The notes beneath the pieces were generated by a model. The model was given only the letters and a program-made list of their open reading frames with translations, was not told the origin of the DNA and searched no databases. This document shows, in pieces, positions 3,863 through 30,093 of a stretch of 32,000 nt of DNA. Position 1 is the first letter of the stretch. Each line of letters begins with the position of its first letter. This DNA comes from Flavobacterium capsici (GTDB taxonomy: Bacteria; Bacteroidota; Bacteroidia; Flavobacteriales; Flavobacteriaceae), in the NCBI RefSeq assembly GCF_032098525.1, contig NZ_CP134890.1, positions 2,635,363 to 2,667,362 on the forward strand. The letters run 5' to 3'. The translations under genes were made by a program, and so were the position numbers.

Positions 3863-4840
3863 ATGAGAACGATACAATTTAGAGAAGCAATTGCTGAAGC
3901 GATGAGTGAAGAAATGCGTCGCGATGAATCAGTTTATTTAATGGGTGAAGAAGTTGCCGAATATAATGGTGCTTATAAAGCTTCAAAAGGAATGTTGGAC
4001 GAATTTGGTCCAAAAAGAGTTATTGATACACCAATTGCTGAACTTGGTTTTGCTGGAATTGCTGTTGGTTCAGCTATGAATGGAAATCGTCCGATTGTAG
4101 AATATATGACGTTCAACTTTTCATTGGTTGGTATCGACCAAATTATAAACAACGCTGCGAAAATGCGTCAAATGTCTGCGGGTCAATTCCCAATGCCAAT
4201 GGTTTTTCGTGGTCCAACGGCTTCTGCAGGACAATTAGGAGCAACACACTCACAAGCTTTCGAAAATTGGTTTGCTAACACACCAGGTTTAAAAGTTGTT
4301 GTGCCATCAACACCTTATGATGCTAAAGGTTTATTAAAGGCTGCCATTCGCGATAATGATCCAGTTATTTTTATGGAATCAGAACAAATGTATGGTGATA
4401 AAGGTGAAGTGCCTGATGGAGAATATATTTTGCCGTTAGGAGTTGCAGATATCAAAAGAGAAGGAACAGATGTTACTATAGTATCTTTTGGAAAAATAAT
4501 AAAGGAAGCGTTTATAGCTGCAGATGAATTGGAGAAAGAAGGCATTTCATGTGAAATAATCGATTTAAGAACTGTTCGTCCGATGGATTATGATGCAATT
4601 ATAAATTCTGTTAAAAAAACAAATAGATTAGTAGTTTTAGAAGAAGCTTGGCCTTTTGCGAGTGTTGCTTCTGAAATTACCTATATGGTTCAAGAACGTG
4701 CCTTTGATTATCTTGATGCACCAGTTCAAAGAATTACTACAGCTGATACGCCTGCGCCATATTCGCCAACACTTTTAAAAGAGTGGTTGCCTAACGCAGA
4801 AGATGTTATTAAAGCTGTGAAAAAAGTAACTTACAAATAA
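3863..4840 (+). CDS. pdhB: Pyruvate dehydrogenase (2-oxoacid dehydrogenase) E1 component, beta subunit
   Basis: 325 aa. It shows a transketolase-like pyrimidine-binding/C-terminal fold: REA...AMSEEMRRD..V.LMGEEV..Y.GAYK.S.G....FG..RV.DTPI.E.GF.G. Confidence 0.9.
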   Translation: MRTIQFREAIAEAMSEEMRRDESVYLMGEEVAEYNGAYKASKGMLDEFGPKRVIDTPIAELGFAGIAVGSAMNGNRPIVEYMTFNFSLVGIDQIINNAAKMRQMSAGQFPMPMVFRGPTASAGQLGATHSQAFENWFANTPGLKVVVPSTPYDAKGLLKAAIRDNDPVIFMESEQMYGDKGEVPDGEYILPLGVADIKREGTDVTIVSFGKIIKEAFIAADELEKEGISCEIIDLRTVRPMDYDAIINSVKKTNRLVVLEEAWPFASVASEITYMVQERAFDYLDAPVQRITTADTPAPYSPTLLKEWLPNAEDVIKAVKKVTYK

Positions 4841-10093: not shown

Positions 10094-10126
10094 TTGTTTT
10101 TTTCTGTTAAAGTTTTGTTACTTTTG
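10094..10126 (+). promoter_or_regulatory. Candidate Bacteroidota-type promoter for hppA
   Basis: There is a perfect -7 box TACTTTTG (10119-10126, consensus TAnnTTTG). A TTG at 10094-10096 could be the -33 element with a 22-nt spacer. That TTG is the one the ORF track used as a start codon. Confidence 0.4.
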
Positions 10127-10159
10127 CACCCGATAAAATTTATAACCAAAATTATATTT

Positions 10160-12679
10160 ATGGAATCAATGATGATTTATGTGCCAATAGTTATGGCGTT
10201 GATTGGATTAGTTTTTATGGCTGTTAAAAGGTCTTGGGTTTTAAAACAAGATGCTGGTGATGGTAAGATGAAAGAAATCTCAGATTACATCTACGAAGGT
10301 GCATTGGCTTTCTTGAAAGCAGAATACAGATTATTGGCAGTTTTTGTTCTTATAGCAAGTGCTGTATTAGCTGGAATTACTTTCTTACCAGGTGTTAAAA
10401 CACATATGTTAATCGTAATTGCTTTTATTTTTGGTGCTATATTCTCGGCTTTGGCAGGAAATATGGGTATGAAAATAGCAACTAAAACTAACGTAAGAAC
10501 TACTCAAGCAGCTCGTACTAGTTTACCACAAGCTTTAAAAGTTTCTTTTGGTGGTGGAACAGTAATGGGATTAGGTGTTGCTGGACTTGCGGTTTTAGGA
10601 TTAACTACTTTCTTTATAATTTTCTTTCATGTATTTATGGGTGGAGTTTGGACAGATACTGAAGGAATGACTGTTGTTCTTGAAACTCTTGCAGGTTTTT
10701 CTCTTGGAGCAGAATCAATCGCATTGTTTGCGCGTGTTGGTGGTGGTATTTATACAAAAGCTGCTGACGTAGGTGCCGATTTAGTTGGTAAAGTTGAAGC
10801 TGGTATTCCAGAAGATGATCCAAGAAATCCTGCTACAATTGCTGACAATGTTGGTGACAATGTTGGAGACGTTGCTGGAATGGGTGCCGATTTGTTTGGT
10901 TCTTATGTAGCAACTGTACTTGCAGCTATGGTTTTGGGTAACTATGTTATCAAAGATATGGGCGGAAAAATTGAAGACGCTTTTGGAGGAATTGGTCCAA
11001 TTTTATTGCCAATGGCAATTGCTGGTTTCGGAATTTTATTTTCTATTATAGGTACAATGCTAGTTAAAATTTCTAGCGATGATGCTAAAGAAAAACAAGT
11101 TCAAGGTGCATTAAACGTTGGTAACTGGGTTTCTATTATCCTAACAGCTATTTCTTGTTTCTTCTTAGTACAATATTTATTGCCTGCAACAATGACTATG
11201 GAATTCTATGGTGAAGGCGCACAACAAATTTCTTCAATGAGAGTGTTTTATGCAACTATCGTAGGTTTAGTAGTTGGTGGTGTTATTTCATCGGTTACAG
11301 AATATTACACAGGTTTAGGAACAAAACCAGTTTTGGCTATCGTACAAAAATCTTCTACTGGTGCAGGAACTAACGTTATTGCTGGTTTAGCAACAGGTAT
11401 GATTTCTACGTTCCCAACCGTATTATTATTTGCTGGTGCAATTTGGGCTTCTTATGCATTTGCTGGTTTCTATGGTGTGGCTTTAGCAGCTTCTGCTATG
11501 ATGGCTACAACGGCTATGCAATTAGCTATCGATGCTTTCGGACCAATCTCTGATAACGCTGGAGGAATTGCTGAAATGAGCGAATTACCAAAAGAAGTTC
11601 GTACGCGTACCGATATTTTAGATTCAGTAGGTAATACTACTGCTGCTACTGGTAAAGGTTTTGCTATTGCTTCTGCAGCGCTTACTTCGTTAGCATTATT
11701 TGCTGCTTATGTAACCTTTACAGGAATTGATGGAATCAATATTTTCAAAGCTCCAGTTTTAGCCATGTTATTTATTGGTGGTATGATTCCAGTTGTATTC
11801 TCTGCTCTTGCAATGAATTCAGTTGGTAAAGCAGCAATGGATATGGTATATGAAGTGCGTCGTCAGTTCAAAGAAATTCCAGGTATTATGGAAGGAACTG
11901 GAAAACCTCAATATGGTAAATGTGTTGAAATTTCTACTAAAGCAGCTTTACGCGAAATGATGTTGCCAGGAGTTTTAACTATTGGTTTCCCAATTGCTAT
12001 TGTTCTTTTAGGCAAATTAGTATATGCAGATAACAACCAGTTAATCGCTGAAATGTTAGGTGGATATATGGCTGGAGTTACCGTTTCAGGTGTACTTTGG
12101 GCTGTGTTCCAAAACAATGCTGGTGGTGCTTGGGATAACGCTAAAAAATCATTCGAAGCTGGTGTAGAAATCAATGGTGAAATGACATATAAAGGTTCAG
12201 ATGCTCACAAAGCAGCGGTAACTGGAGATACAGTTGGTGATCCATTTAAAGATACTTCTGGTCCATCGATGAACATCTTAATCAAATTAACTTGTTTAAT
12301 TGGTTTAGTAATCGCTCCAATCTTGGGTGCTGGTCATTCTGATGCTGCAATGGCTTCTTGTTGTGTGGCAAACGAAAAATGTGCTACCATGAGCAAAGAA
12401 GAATGTGCCAAAATGGGATGTACTGAAATGACCGTTTGTAACTCTATGTCAAAAGAAGAGTGTATGGAAAAAGGATGTACAAGCACAACTTGTAAATTCA
12501 TGAATCCTGAAGCTGCAATGATGGTTAAAGAAGTTTCTAAAGAAGTAAAAATTGAAAAAACTAACGAAAACGGAAAAGTTACTGCTAAAGTAACCACTGT
12601 TATCGATGGCAAAGAAGAAGTTCAAAACTTTGAAGGAACTGAAGAAGAAGTTCAAGCAAAAATTGATGCTTTAAAATAA
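10160..12679 (+). CDS. hppA: Membrane-bound pyrophosphate-energised cation pump (M-PPase), K+-dependent type, with a non-canonical C-terminal extension
   Basis: It carries the signature ADNVGDNVGDVAGMGADLFGSY and a multi-TM core. The GNTTAATGKGFAI motif has Ala at the position that marks K+-dependent enzymes. I place the start at ATG 10160 (MESMMIYVP...), downstream of the candidate promoter, rather than at TTG 10094. Confidence 0.92.
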   Translation: MESMMIYVPIVMALIGLVFMAVKRSWVLKQDAGDGKMKEISDYIYEGALAFLKAEYRLLAVFVLIASAVLAGITFLPGVKTHMLIVIAFIFGAIFSALAGNMGMKIATKTNVRTTQAARTSLPQALKVSFGGGTVMGLGVAGLAVLGLTTFFIIFFHVFMGGVWTDTEGMTVVLETLAGFSLGAESIALFARVGGGIYTKAADVGADLVGKVEAGIPEDDPRNPATIADNVGDNVGDVAGMGADLFGSYVATVLAAMVLGNYVIKDMGGKIEDAFGGIGPILLPMAIAGFGILFSIIGTMLVKISSDDAKEKQVQGALNVGNWVSIILTAISCFFLVQYLLPATMTMEFYGEGAQQISSMRVFYATIVGLVVGGVISSVTEYYTGLGTKPVLAIVQKSSTGAGTNVIAGLATGMISTFPTVLLFAGAIWASYAFAGFYGVALAASAMMATTAMQLAIDAFGPISDNAGGIAEMSELPKEVRTRTDILDSVGNTTAATGKGFAIASAALTSLALFAAYVTFTGIDGINIFKAPVLAMLFIGGMIPVVFSALAMNSVGKAAMDMVYEVRRQFKEIPGIMEGTGKPQYGKCVEISTKAALREMMLPGVLTIGFPIAIVLLGKLVYADNNQLIAEMLGGYMAGVTVSGVLWAVFQNNAGGAWDNAKKSFEAGVEINGEMTYKGSDAHKAAVTGDTVGDPFKDTSGPSMNILIKLTCLIGLVIAPILGAGHSDAAMASCCVANEKCATMSKEECAKMGCTEMTVCNSMSKEECMEKGCTSTTCKFMNPEAAMMVKEVSKEVKIEKTNENGKVTAKVTTVIDGKEEVQNFEGTEEEVQAKIDALK

Positions 12680-12705
12680 AATATAAGTTCTTTTTCAAGA
12701 ATATA

Positions 12706-12733
12706 AAAGCTCCGCAAATGCGGAGCTTTTTTT
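12706..12733 (+). terminator. Rho-independent terminator of hppA
   Basis: AAAGCTCCGC pairs with GCGGAGCTTT across a 4-nt loop. A run of seven T follows. Confidence 0.85.
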
Positions 12734-12789
12734 ATGATAAATCAATCTAATAGCTAAATAGTAGACATTTATAATTAAATAGTTCCTAT

Positions 12790-13104
12790 TCATTAGTCAA
12801 GCTTACATATTTACAATAGAAGAGTTCGGTTTCATAGTTAAAGGTTAGACATTTATAGTTGAATGTCCCACTTTCATTAGTGAAGATTAGATATTTATTA
12901 ATGAATATTACAAATTCATATATGAAACCCAGACATTCATTAGTGAATCCTACAAGTTTTTCTTTGAATATTACAAATTCATTAGTGAATCCTACAAATT
13001 CATTTATAAATGTCACGCATTCATAATTGAATCCTACACATTTATCTATGAATATTACAAGTTCATTTATGAAACCTACAGATTCATTAATCAATCTAAA
13101 ATTT
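12790..13104. repeat. Tandem array of 15 degenerate repeats in strict 21-nt register
   Basis: Units start at 12790, 12811, 12832, ... 13084 with no indels. The consensus is roughly TCATTAnTGAAtcCTACAaAT. TGAA is conserved at unit positions 8-11 and AT at positions 20-21. Confidence 0.9.
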
Positions 13105-13118
13105 TAGCATTAAAAACT

Positions 13119-13709
13119 CTAAACGTGTTTTCCTTTTTCCCAACCCGTTTTTCCTAAGTAGTGTTCGGCACTTTCAATTGCGCCTTGTTCTATAGTGGTT
13201 CCCATAGAATCATTCCAACGGTTGAGGTAGCCAAAAAGCGAAATAACACCTAGCATTTCTACAATTTCGCCTTCGTTCCAATATTTGTAAAGTTCTGATT
13301 TAATGTTTTCATCTACGTTGTTTGGAATTACTGAAGCAGCCAAAGCAAAGTTCAAAGCAGCACGTTCAGCTTCAGAAAAAGCAGGATGTGATGCATATTC
13401 CCAAATATTATCCAGTTGTTCTTGGTCGGCGCCGTAGCGTTCCGCAGCACGAATGGTATGCGCTTGACAATACCTGCAACCAGCGGCATTACTAGAAACC
13501 CAACCAATCATGCGTTTCAATGCTGAGGTAACACGTCCTTGGTTTTCCATCACGGCTTTATTTAAATTAATAAACGCTTTGGAAATCGCAGGACGATGTT
13601 GCATCGTCAATACTGAATTGGGACAAAAACCTAAGGTTTCGTTGAAAAATGCAGCGAGTTCTTGGGTTTCTTTATCGTGTTCTGGCGAAAGTGGTTTAAC
13701 TAATGGCAT
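13119..13709 (-). CDS. Carboxymuconolactone decarboxylase / AhpD-like peroxidase-related protein
   Basis: 196 aa with the AhpD-family CxxC core (AAGCRYCQAHT). Confidence 0.85.
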   Translation of the reverse strand: MPLVKPLSPEHDKETQELAAFFNETLGFCPNSVLTMQHRPAISKAFINLNKAVMENQGRVTSALKRMIGWVSSNAAGCRYCQAHTIRAAERYGADQEQLDNIWEYASHPAFSEAERAALNFALAASVIPNNVDENIKSELYKYWNEGEIVEMLGVISLFGYLNRWNDSMGTTIEQGAIESAEHYLGKTGWEKGKHV

Positions 13710-19004: not shown

Positions 19005-20255
19005 TTATAATCCAAAAGCTGTTTTTATTTTGTCTACAAAATCTAATTTTTCCCAAGTAAATAACTCAACTATTACAGTTTTTGGCGCACCATTTGGTAA
19101 TTGGAACGTTTTAGAAACCGTTTCAGGTTTTCTTCCCATATGTCCATAAGCAGCAGTTTCACTATAAATTGGGTTTCTTAATTTTAAACGTTGCTCAATA
19201 AAATATGGACGCATATCAAAAATAGTTTCAACAACTTTAGAAATTTCACCATCAGTCATATTCACTTTTGCAGTTCCATATGTATTTACGTTGATAGAAG
19301 TTGGTTTAGCTACACCAATAGCGTACGAAACTTGAACTAAAATTTCATCACACAATCCAGCAGCAACTAAATTTTTAGCAATATGACGTGTAGCATAAGC
19401 TGCAGAACGGTCAACTTTACTAGGATCTTTTCCAGAAAAAGCACCACCACCATGAGCACCTTTTCCACCATAAGTATCAACAATAATTTTTCTTCCTGTT
19501 AAACCTGTATCACCATGCGGTCCACCAATCACAAATTTCCCAGTTGGATTGATATGATATGTAATATCATCATTAAATAAATGTGCATATTGAGGATATT
19601 TTGCTTTAACTCTTGGAATCAAAATTGACACTAAATCACTTTTGATTTTAGCTAACATAGTTGGTTCATCAGCAAAATCATCATGTTGAGTAGAAATTAC
19701 AATAGCATCAATTCTAACAGGTTTGTTATCGTCAGAATACTCTAGAGTTACTTGCGATTTTGCGTCTGGGCGCAGGTATTTAATTTCGTTATTTTCTCTT
19801 CTGATAGCGGCTAATTCAATCAATAATGCATGCGATAAATCTAACGCCAAAGGCATGTAATTTTCGGTTTCATTTGTAGCATATCCAAACATCATTCCTT
19901 GATCGCCAGCGCCTTGTTCTTCTTTGCTTGCTCTGTCAACACCTTGATTAATATCTGCAGATTGTTCGTGAATTGCTGAAAGTACTCCACAAGAATCTGC
20001 TTCAAACATGTATTCACTTTTTGTATAACCAATTTTGCGAATAACTTCTCTCGCAATTTGTTGAACATCAAGATAAGTAGTTGATTTTACTTCACCAGCT
20101 AAAATTACTTGACCAGTAGTTACTAAAGTTTCACAAGCCACTTTTGAATCAGCATCAAACGCTAAAAAATTATCAATTAATGCATCACTAATTTGATCAG
20201 CAACTTTATCAGGATGTCCTTCACTAACTGACTCCGACGTAAATAAATAAGCCAT
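19005..20255 (-). CDS. metK: S-adenosylmethionine synthetase
   Basis: 416 aa. Signatures: [25 protein letters not shown] and [19 protein letters not shown]. Confidence 0.97.
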
Positions 20256-20295: not shown

Positions 20296-20406
20296 GAAAA
20301 AAGTGGATTGCCAACAAAGCTAAAGGAGAGTTTCTGCTTTAGCATTTTTTAACGAGGTTGCAATCAGTTCAAATTTCTCCTCTTTATTTTTTCGATTGCA
20401 AATGTA
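20296..20406 (-). promoter_or_regulatory. Structured 5' leader of metK with mutually exclusive helices and a T-run (candidate riboswitch/attenuator, class unassigned)
   Basis: All reads are on the minus strand. A -7-like box TACATTTG lies at 20399-20406. Segment A is TGCAATC (20394-20400), segment B is GATTGCAAC (20357-20365) and segment C is GTTGGCAATC (within 20303-20315). A:B and B:C pairings are mutually exclusive. B:C is followed by CAC and then TTTTTT. A nested hairpin GCTAAAG/CTTTAGC lies at 20319-20343. Confidence 0.4.
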
Positions 20407-24957: not shown

Positions 24958-25020
24958 CTAAAACTGTTGCAAATTAAAATTCTATGCCTTTACTTTGCAC
25001 CGTTCATAAACATAATGATT

Positions 25021-25119
25021 GTTATCACGAAAGCTGGAGAGATTAGACTCTATGAAAGCTTAGCAACCCTACACTTGTAGAAGGTGCTACATTCTATTCG
25101 CCTTGGCGAAACAGATAAC
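25021..25119 (+). promoter_or_regulatory. SAM-I (S-box) riboswitch
   Basis: P1 pairs GTTATC (25021-25026) with GATAAC (25114-25119). The P2/kink-turn region is GCTGGAGAGATTAGACTCTATGAAAGC. The core strings TTAGCAACC and GGTGCTACATTC are present. P3 is CTAC-ACTT-GTAG and P4 is TTCGC-CTTG-GCGAA. The order and spacing match the S-box consensus (..AUC.AGAG.GG.GGAGGGA..GGCCC.AUGAA.CC.GCAACC...GGUGCUAA.UCC...AGAU.A). Confidence 0.85.
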
Positions 25120-25177
25120 CCGAAGAAATACTTTCCAGTTTCTGATAACAATTAATTTATAAAACGTTATTAGAAAA

Positions 25178-29797: not shown

Positions 29798-29995
29798 GAG
29801 ACTGTATAGATTGAACAGGTTTTGATGTATATGCTTTGCGTTACGATGTTGTTGTTTTAGGATACTTTATAGATGCTTTGAGTTACTTTATAGATTGTTT
29901 TGGAGACGATGTAGATACTTTGAGTGACGATATAGATGGATTGAGAGACGATGTAGATGGATTGTGATACTCTGTAAATATTCTGTGATACTTTA
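29798..29995. repeat. Tandem array of about 9-10 degenerate repeats in strict 21-nt register
   Basis: Units start at 29798, 29819, 29840, 29861, 29882, 29903, 29924, 29945 and 29966, plus a partial unit at 29987, with no indels. The consensus is roughly GAGACGATGTAGATgctTTGa. A degenerate extra unit at 29777 overlaps the metF stop. Confidence 0.85.
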
Positions 29996-30093
29996 TTTTT
30001 TTGAACAAGGCGTTTACTAATTAGCCCTGATGGAAGCAAGCTACCGTGTAGCGCGGACAGCAGGAAAAGGGATTATTATATTGCCCAAGCGGA

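Follow-up and report, generated by a model that had tools for sequence, protein, structure and literature searches.

Position of a 21-bp tandem array between two convergent genes

The window analysed here is a 32,000-nt stretch of the Flavobacterium capsici chromosome that contains, between its hppA gene and a convergent CMD/AhpD-like gene, a tandem array of 21-bp units, which we call A1 (12748-13104). Window position x corresponds to position x + 1,070,411 of CP134878.1 (GCA_032095375.1; chromosome of 3.07 Mb), and the closest protein relatives of the window proteins are from Flavobacterium. The left flank of the array is formed by hppA (10094-12679, plus strand), which encodes an H+-translocating pyrophosphatase (Pfam H_PPase, PF03030) and is followed by an intrinsic hairpin terminator (12705-12730; AAAAGCTCCGC-AAAT-GCGGAGCTTTT) that scores on both strands. 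The right flank is a peroxidase-related CMD/AhpD-like gene (13119-13709, minus strand; PF02627). An earlier note, made from the letters of this stretch alone, had placed the array in the intergenic region between the hppA terminator and the stop of the AhpD-like gene, and the gene and terminator calls bear this out. The terminator to its left and the CMD stop codon to its right are 14-17 bp away from the array; for the stop codon, the distance to the last unit is 14 bp.

The earlier note described 15 units of 21 nt at 12790-13104 that align without an indel. These 15 units were confirmed, and the array proved to be longer than described, with two degenerate units upstream (12748 and 12769). 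The full array, as determined by register print, column profile and Tandem Repeats Finder, thus comprises 17 units with no indel, and the periods reported by the last of these programs were 21, 42, 63 and 84. The units are contiguous and have no unique spacers, in agreement with the earlier statement that the array is not CRISPR-like. They do differ at many positions, as had been noted, with a mean pairwise identity of 0.61. In the column profile, T1, A10, A11 and T21 are invariant across all 17 units and A3, T4 and T8 are kept in 16 of them; columns 5-7, 13-14 and 19 vary freely. A pattern built on the unit had 11 matches in the array against about three expected in the whole window, and no shuffle attained the observed total of 13 matches. 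A pattern spanning three units matched five times, with none expected.

The periodicity of A1 has more than one level. At lags 21, 42 and 84, self-match was 0.60, 0.66 and 0.70, respectively; it remained below 0.42 at all lags under 100 other than multiples of 21. The rise from lag 21 to lags 42 and 84 reveals a 42/84-bp higher-order structure, and the partial alternation of unit types that had been seen by eye is borne out by it, GAATCC units alternating with GAATAT units. We also considered whether the unit might be a diverged array of heptamers (7 × 3). This was ruled out: no lag below 21 exceeded a self-match of 0.42, and the circular self-match of the consensus at shifts 7 and 14 was at background. 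Since no residual 7-nt signal is left, the A1 unit is a true 21-mer and not a diverged heptamer trimer.

Three parts can be distinguished along the array. Units 1-7 (12748-12894), on the side of hppA, form a degenerate edge, in which column 9 is A instead of G in three of the seven units (12748, 12769 and 12832). Units 8-16 (12895-13083) form a homogeneous core with 42/84-bp higher-order repeats, where GAATATTACA alternates with GAATCCTACA. A terminal unit (13084-13104) follows on the CMD side. Units 1-7 are the older edge, and the core is the active part of the array. The same structure, minus one unit, was seen in four independent Logan assemblies, so A1 is not an assembly artefact.

Unit turnover and divergence between strains

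The four Logan assemblies represent one sister strain, with which the window was compared. Its CMD protein is 97% identical to that of the window, and the DNA is 98.5% identical over 20.6 kb. In the sister strain, A1 has 16 units instead of 17 and the gap is exactly 21 bp. The missing unit corresponds to window positions 12979-12999, in the most homogeneous part of the array. Whether unit number varies between strains, a question raised in the earlier note, can thus be answered: it differs by one whole unit (17 versus 16). Over the 20.6 kb, the two strains are separated by 281 mismatches and only two gaps, namely the 21-bp A1 unit and 3 bp in hppA.

The mismatches are unevenly distributed. Their rate between the strains is 0.74% in other intergenic DNA and 3.55% at third codon positions, and it reaches 5.95% over the whole of A1. 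Within the array, the hppA-proximal half (to ~12926) differs by 1.7% and the CMD-proximal half (~12927-13104) by 10.8%, with most strain differences falling in the core or in the terminal unit. Divergence of A1 is therefore eight times that of other intergenic DNA, and the array is the fastest-evolving stretch of its 20-kb neighbourhood. One unit carries six clustered changes that turn it into a neighbouring unit type, which looks like conversion. The seven conserved columns hold six of the 20 strain differences, compared with 6.7 expected, so there is no visible purifying selection on these columns. At a greater distance, among relatives whose CMD proteins are 88-93% identical, A1 is absent from the CMD locus, where other neighbours or no array were found.

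Preservation of exact phase despite divergence of the units had been taken in the earlier note to imply selection on periodicity. The strain comparison does not lead to this conclusion, as non-unit indels are rare and turnover by whole units suffices. Given one non-unit gap per 281 mismatches, the approximately 100 non-consensus cells of A1 predict fewer than one register-breaking indel. An intact register would thus be expected without selection.

Based on these results, we think that A1 is probably a lineage-specific, non-coding and hypervariable minisatellite, that is, a variable number tandem repeat (VNTR), between two convergent housekeeping genes, which changes through unit-wise slippage, exchange or conversion. 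The array would grow, shrink and be homogenised by whole units, and this turnover may proceed via mispairing of slipped strands, via unequal exchange, and via conversion among units or among 42/84-bp blocks. Whole-unit turnover would keep the copies in the 21-bp register while point mutations build up, mostly at the edges, which would stay out of turnover. The anatomy of A1 requires no sequence-specific product or binding function. We infer the mechanism of slippage or unequal exchange and its neutrality, and likewise the transcription of the array in the CMD 3' untranslated region (UTR) that is discussed below.

Coding potential of the array

A1 has no coding signature. The earlier note had pointed to a minus-strand frame (12786-13094) that is open across the array and might encode a heptad-repeat peptide. 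The frame exists and is open; the peptide reading did not hold up. Mechanically, it is an open reading frame (ORF) of 102 amino acids with a TTG start and E-F-V-G-F-T-N heptads, 21 nt being seven codons, and two plus-strand frames across A1 are largely open as well. These frames are open because the motif contains no stops in them. We judged the minus-strand ORF to be no gene, and the gene caller of the genome collection placed no gene in A1. The CMD gene shares its frame with the array ORF, with three stops in between.

Variation within the array and between the strains shows no trace of translation. Non-consensus counts by A1 column modulo 3 were 36, 35 and 28 (p = 0.56), a flat distribution without codon periodicity. 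Coding mismatches between the two strains fell at third codon positions in 204 of 249 cases (82%). In the sister strain, the TTG start of the minus-strand ORF is replaced, and in each of the open frames, nearly all changes in A1 are non-synonymous. No homologue of the minus-strand ORF was found among 5.8 billion protein clusters, and neither this ORF nor the plus frame had a Pfam match. The plus frame gave 21 weak matches among 1.84 billion representatives in a search without word index. The 14 matches that were retrieved are ORFs across other 21-nt arrays. The 10 looked up, from Calothrix and Nostoc among others, all proved to be singleton clusters and represent unrelated repeat arrays.

Taken together, the flat modulo-3 variability, the lost start, the non-synonymous changes, and the lack of a homologue and of a Pfam match led us to reject a heptad-peptide gene. 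It is true that the gene caller predicts an ORF of 43 amino acids within a second 21-bp array of this genome (A2, see below), but all six frames of a third, degenerate array (A3) are interrupted by stops. We therefore regard it as highly improbable that the minus-strand ORF at 12786-13094 or a plus-strand frame is translated into a heptad-repeat micro-protein.

Related arrays in other Flavobacterium genomes

A strict two-unit pattern of A1 was scanned over one genome per species, and true A1-type arrays were identified in two other Flavobacterium genomes. One is on a contig of the Flavobacterium metagenome-assembled genome JAYVNT01 (L003), where ~10 units at 3945-4155 lie after a DUF7935 gene and next to UvrD; this array starts ~95 nt after the upstream stop codon. 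The other belongs to a further Flavobacterium species with genome record JBPTTL01 (L005) and contains ~15 units at 55-378, directly after the stop codon of a GT4 glycosyltransferase gene. Conserved and variable columns coincide between A1 and the arrays of L003 and L005, also in units that were unconstrained by the search pattern. A CC/AT dimorphism at columns 13-14 is common to A1 and the L003 array, and the left-edge units of A1 and the L005 array are alike (22 bp at 91%). Outside the arrays, the flanks of the three loci share nothing. The 52 kb of this genome that we analysed contain one A1-type array, the scan yielded one locus per genome, and the A1-type family is low-copy, sporadic and non-syntenic.

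In the L003 array, we also observed that the left-edge unit is inverted (TTGTAGGATTCAATGA, L003:3945-3975) and makes up an inverted repeat together with the first direct units. No inverted edge unit of this kind is present in A1.

The distribution of the family raises the question of whether A1 could be a mobile or dispersed element of the type in which a minisatellite is embedded in a MITE (miniature inverted-repeat transposable element), with its loci arising from transposition or horizontal transfer. BrickBuilt provides a precedent for such an element in Bacteroidota (PMC4596501). A1-type arrays do occur at three non-syntenic loci (hppA/CMD, DUF7935/UvrD and GT4 glycosyltransferase), units are identical at 20 of 21 bases between the window and L003, and left-edge units are common to the window and L005. 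Yet the three arrays have no leader, tail or terminal inverted repeats in common, there are only 14-17 bp on either side of A1 before the terminator or the stop codon, and the scan of the genome collection recovered one locus per genome and not many. Moreover, A1 had no matches in plasmid (PLSDB), phage or viral-contig collections, and a plasmid, phage or viral origin was rejected on these grounds. We consider a mobile element to be very unlikely.

A relaxed three-unit pattern was applied to a metagenome collection. Among the matches listed were generic 21-bp repeats of every kind, many of them probably coding, and no secure new member of the A1 family. Three contigs from these searches (L130, L091 and L061) are loosely A1-like only. 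L061, a metagenome contig with 34% G+C, contains a 21-bp satellite (TCATCAyTCAATACAACATAT) with about 65 units at ~314-1700, and occasional insertions of 5-6 bp shift its register.

Sequence-unrelated arrays with the same period

To place A1 among other periodic sequences, we used a lag scan of 166 kb of unselected Flavobacterium DNA, which consisted of a 51.7-kb piece of this genome (L159, the window and L160) and six other loci. Every lag from 8 to 60 was scanned at a threshold of self-match ≥0.55 in 105-bp windows. Four strong periodic arrays were found: A1, two more within the same 52 kb of this genome (A2 and A3) and one in a relative (L015).

The second array, A2, had been reported in the earlier note at 29798-29995. 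It exists and has the same period, and its extent is somewhat larger (29798-30007), with 10 units (unit GAGACGATGTAGATGGATTGA, consensus GAtACtaTaTAGATg.tTTg.) that are unrelated to A1. A2 starts 12 bp after the metF stop, and a relative at 92% protein identity lacks it downstream of metF. Within it, the gene caller predicts an ORF of 43 amino acids (window 29836-29967, plus strand) with a TTG start and the heptads DDVDTLS/DDIDGLR. This ORF was found in this genome only and the call is probably spurious. Just 3' of A2, a G+C-rich segment (30019-30071, plus strand) has a sub-threshold match to the Flavo-1 RNA motif (RF01705), with 33.2 bits (gathering score 42) and E = 2.6e-5 when 500 bp were searched. 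A Flavo-1-like element was not found beside the other period-21 arrays.

The third array, A3, lies ~8 kb left of the window start (L159:19169-19399, CP134878.1 ~1,062,104-1,062,334) and has 11 units with the consensus tAACcTc.a..a..AAGtTAA, a pairwise identity of 0.51 and no indel. Its layout is that of A1: a Carboxyl_trans (accD-like) gene with its bidirectional terminator is on one side, and a convergent FtsX/MacB gene on the other. The fourth array (L015:11835-12107) contains 13 units of 21 bp (TGCAGAGAAAGCAACATTGAG) with 42/84-bp higher-order repeats. It is located in the CMD-hppA interval of a relative whose CMD protein is 91% identical, between two small genes without a Pfam match, and adjoins a bidirectional terminator (12113-12140); in sequence, it has no relation to A1 or A2. 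A common origin of the four arrays was rejected, as even the best circular alignments between their units did not exceed chance (p > 0.3). None of the A1, A2, A3 or L015 units has an internal 7-nt periodicity.

These and some of the preceding observations weigh against the view that A1 is simply a minisatellite. All four strong arrays in the lag scan have a period of exactly 21, whereas only six of 68 other arrays do so in a background set of mixed metagenome contigs (697 kb in total) whose bias, if any, is towards period 21. It is unlikely that the four arrays share one period by chance (by our own estimate, roughly 10^-3 to 10^-4). Neutral slippage predicts no single shared period, so the shared 21 bp is left unexplained by a minisatellite account. 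Furthermore, the A1 unit contains a palindrome, ATTCA-N4-TGAAT, about which the conservation profile is symmetric (T21/A11 and T1/A10 invariant, A3/T8 kept in 16 of 17 units, C2/G9 half-conserved), and A3 has an analogous GAAG-N7-CTTC core. The commonest L003 unit is identical to window unit 12937 at 20 of 21 bases despite the non-syntenic locus, and the consensus units of L005 and the window agree at 14 of 21 bases. Next to the fast divergence of A1 between strains, the near-identical L003 unit implies recent transfer, relocation of the whole array or constraint on the unit. Finally, the strain comparison involves two strains in all.

One way to accommodate the shared period, which we put forward with reservation because we hold it rather doubtful, is that some Flavobacterium lineages have a class of sequence-unrelated intergenic arrays with a strict 21-bp period and 42/84-bp higher-order repeats. 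It is likewise doubtful, as a part of this reading, that such arrays occur roughly once per 15-20 kb in this genome. If there were such a class, a period-specific generator or a selective filter would be at work instead of generic slippage. Candidates would include a DNA-binding protein, architectural or oligomerising, that recognises phasing over two helical turns, a slippage quantum of the replication or repair machinery, and a templated repeat-adding activity, and the 20/21 unit in L003 would then reflect movement of a whole array or constraint on the unit.

Short heptanucleotide repeats were a separate observation. Repeats of ~4 copies with differing heptamers recur in the Flavobacterium loci and are mostly intergenic (L150:10614-10642, L012:1308-1335 and L159:18172-18202). 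Three more are found in L156 (6604-6634, 13517-13549 and 13678-13705), two of these within a called EPSP-synthase gene. In a relative, (TTGAATA)4 directly follows the CMD stop, where the window has A1. No other short period attained four copies in those loci. The repeats fit reports of 7-bp VNTRs in F. psychrophilum (PMC4501049) and of heptamer arrays (TAACTGA and others) in Beggiatoaceae, cyanobacteria and Flavobacteriia (PMC4679880). Heptamer-biased polymerase slippage was proposed by Mrázek, as cited in the latter paper.

As a single locus, A1 is ordinary. It may serve as a marker for strain typing, and it can mislead gene callers and assemblers. The wider interest lies in three arrays within 52 kb and one in a relative that have an exact 21-bp period without shared sequence, and in one unit type that is almost unchanged at a different locus of another Flavobacterium contig. 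If the period-21 class is true, it would point to an unrecognised constraint on the formation or retention of repeats in Flavobacteriia, and would add a higher-order level to the excess of heptamer repeats that is already known from these and other bacteria. The roles of DNA-helix phasing and of the slippage machinery in bacterial satellites would also become directly testable.

Possible functions at the RNA and DNA level

Between the CMD stop (13119) and A1 no terminator was found, and the first one downstream is the bidirectional hairpin at 12730-12705, so the array is probably transcribed as part of the predicted CMD 3' UTR. A1 might then act as RNA, either as a 3' UTR platform or sponge for an RNA-binding protein or a small RNA, or as an element of mRNA stability. 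In line with this, A2 and the L005 array start right after the upstream stop codon and the L003 array ~95 nt after it, and both strands fold better than shuffled sequence (z = -5.3 and -7.1). However, the folded stretch includes the terminator, and a good folding score is uninformative because any unit with an inverted repeat will produce one.

Covariation offered a more specific view of the hairpin in the A1 unit. Three pairs of this hairpin vary little or not at all and tell us nothing here. In the other two, which do vary, non-Watson-Crick combinations are frequent, in 10 and eight of 17 units in the window, six and seven of 10 in L003, and 16 and 13 of 16 in L005, and no compensatory double changes were found in any of the three arrays. 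A conserved hairpin, whether as RNA or as a cruciform, was rejected for this lack of covariation. There was no Rfam match in A1 at the gathering threshold. The sole match inside A1 with E ≤ 1 was to MIR4372, a eukaryotic miRNA family (12849-12950; 24.8 bits versus a gathering score of 100, E = 0.064), which is at chance level and negligible, and other sub-threshold matches lie on, or extend from, the terminator hairpin. A known RNA family was rejected accordingly. In addition, the orientation of the A1 family relative to the upstream gene is opposite in the window compared with L003 and L005, and the sequence of A1 turns over rapidly. A function of A1 as RNA thus seems improbable to us.

The other suggestion of the earlier note was that 21 bp, about two turns of the helix, could place binding sites on one face of the DNA. 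In its developed form, this would make A1 an architectural or binding element, with palindromic sites phased every two helical turns that serve a dimeric or oligomerising protein on one face, or with curved DNA. Between convergent transcription units, such an element could form a barrier or have a topological role, functionally like the REP/BIME elements (repetitive extragenic palindromes and bacterial interspersed mosaic elements) of enterobacteria. The exact 21-bp period in four of four sequence-unrelated arrays speaks for this idea, as do the palindromic core with its symmetric conservation and the identity of the conserved columns in L003 and L005. The genomic setting is suggestive too: a bidirectional terminator directly adjoins three of the four arrays, and two of the four are flanked by convergent genes.

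Against a binding element, A1 is the fastest-evolving sequence of its 20-kb neighbourhood, the strain differences hit the conserved columns too, and the array is absent in sister species. The units of A2 and L015, judged by inspection of the consensus, have no palindrome. Helical phasing would permit 22 bp as well, but every array is exactly 21. With one mismatch allowed, the palindrome had four matches outside A1, compared with ~5 expected in the whole window. A regulon operator was rejected, ATTCA-N4-TGAAT not being enriched in the window outside A1. From the sequence evidence, we consider a DNA-level element unlikely, and the minisatellite remains the reading that we prefer.

Other features in and around hppA and the window

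The C-terminus of hppA (~12320-12679, plus strand) has an unusual extension that is Cys-rich (CCVANEKCATMSKEECAKMGCTEMTVCNSMSKEECMEKGCTSTTCKF) and ends in a Lys/Glu-rich tail. It holds the sole non-array indel between the two strains (3 bp). Further upstream in the gene, a 12-bp periodicity (10831-10870, plus strand; TTGGTGACAATG × 2.7) encodes a conserved DNVGDNVGD motif and is the only periodic signal other than 21 in the 51.7-kb piece of this genome. Two classes of S-adenosylmethionine (SAM) riboswitch were identified within 5 kb of each other in the window: a SAM-I riboswitch (25019-25121, plus strand) upstream of an S-methyltransferase/metH/metF operon, and a SAM-II riboswitch (20329-20388, minus strand) upstream of metK (19005-20255, minus strand). 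Both are also present in L015.

Comparison with known systems

Several known types of repeat resemble A1 in part. Plasmid iterons and centromere-like arrays have periods of ~17-22 bp or 43 bp and present sites for a cognate protein on one face of the DNA. A1 likewise consists of direct repeats at about two helical turns. Unlike iterons, it is chromosomal, between hppA and the CMD gene, has no rep or par gene nearby and shows no similarity to plasmid or phage records; compared with typical iterons, it has far more copies and a far faster turnover. REP/BIME elements of enterobacteria are palindromic and located 3' of genes, in many cases flanked by convergent genes and close to terminators. They are present in hundreds of dispersed copies of alternating orientation and bind gyrase or IHF. 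From what is generally known of REP/BIME, A1 differs in that its units are direct tandem copies and its family is low-copy.

Heptamer arrays, such as the short tandemly repeated repetitive sequences of cyanobacteria (PMC4679880) and the repeats of F. psychrophilum (PMC4501049), are intergenic, lineage-specific and sporadic like A1, and also occur in Flavobacteriia. They too are missing from the orthologous intergenic region of close relatives, and 21 is 3 × 7, but the A1 unit differs in having no residual 7-nt periodicity. The closest described element to A1 is BrickBuilt of Porphyromonas gingivalis, a 23-nt intergenic minisatellite inside a MITE with 19 copies per genome (PMC4596501). Its arrays have one to ~23 imperfect units, across which pipelines sometimes call spurious ORFs, and its leader and tail modules are up to ~300 nt long and carry terminal inverted repeats (PMC4596501). 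A1 is also from Bacteroidota and is likewise an intergenic tandem array of ~20-nt units without spacers, with conserved and variable positions. In contrast to BrickBuilt, its unit is 21 nt and not 23 nt (the units being compared by length), it is surrounded by no leader, tail or terminal inverted repeat, and the scan found a single A1-type copy per genome.

A1 is most readily compared with minisatellites. Its units, some tens of bases long, are arranged head to tail in intergenic DNA and have no product. The copy number differs by a whole unit between close strains, and degenerate edges surround a homogenised core. That the array is non-coding is indicated by the flat modulo-3 variability, the non-conserved start and a divergence above that of third codon positions. 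Intergenic VNTR loci of bacteria serve for strain typing by multiple-locus VNTR analysis (MLVA). Among the satellites of prokaryotes, which have been reviewed, dispersed non-coding families are rare (PMC6749651). What sets A1 apart from a plain VNTR is its marked 42/84-bp higher-order structure, a period that is common to sequence-unrelated arrays in the same genome, and the occurrence of near-identical units at a non-syntenic locus (L003) and of related ones in a further species (L005).

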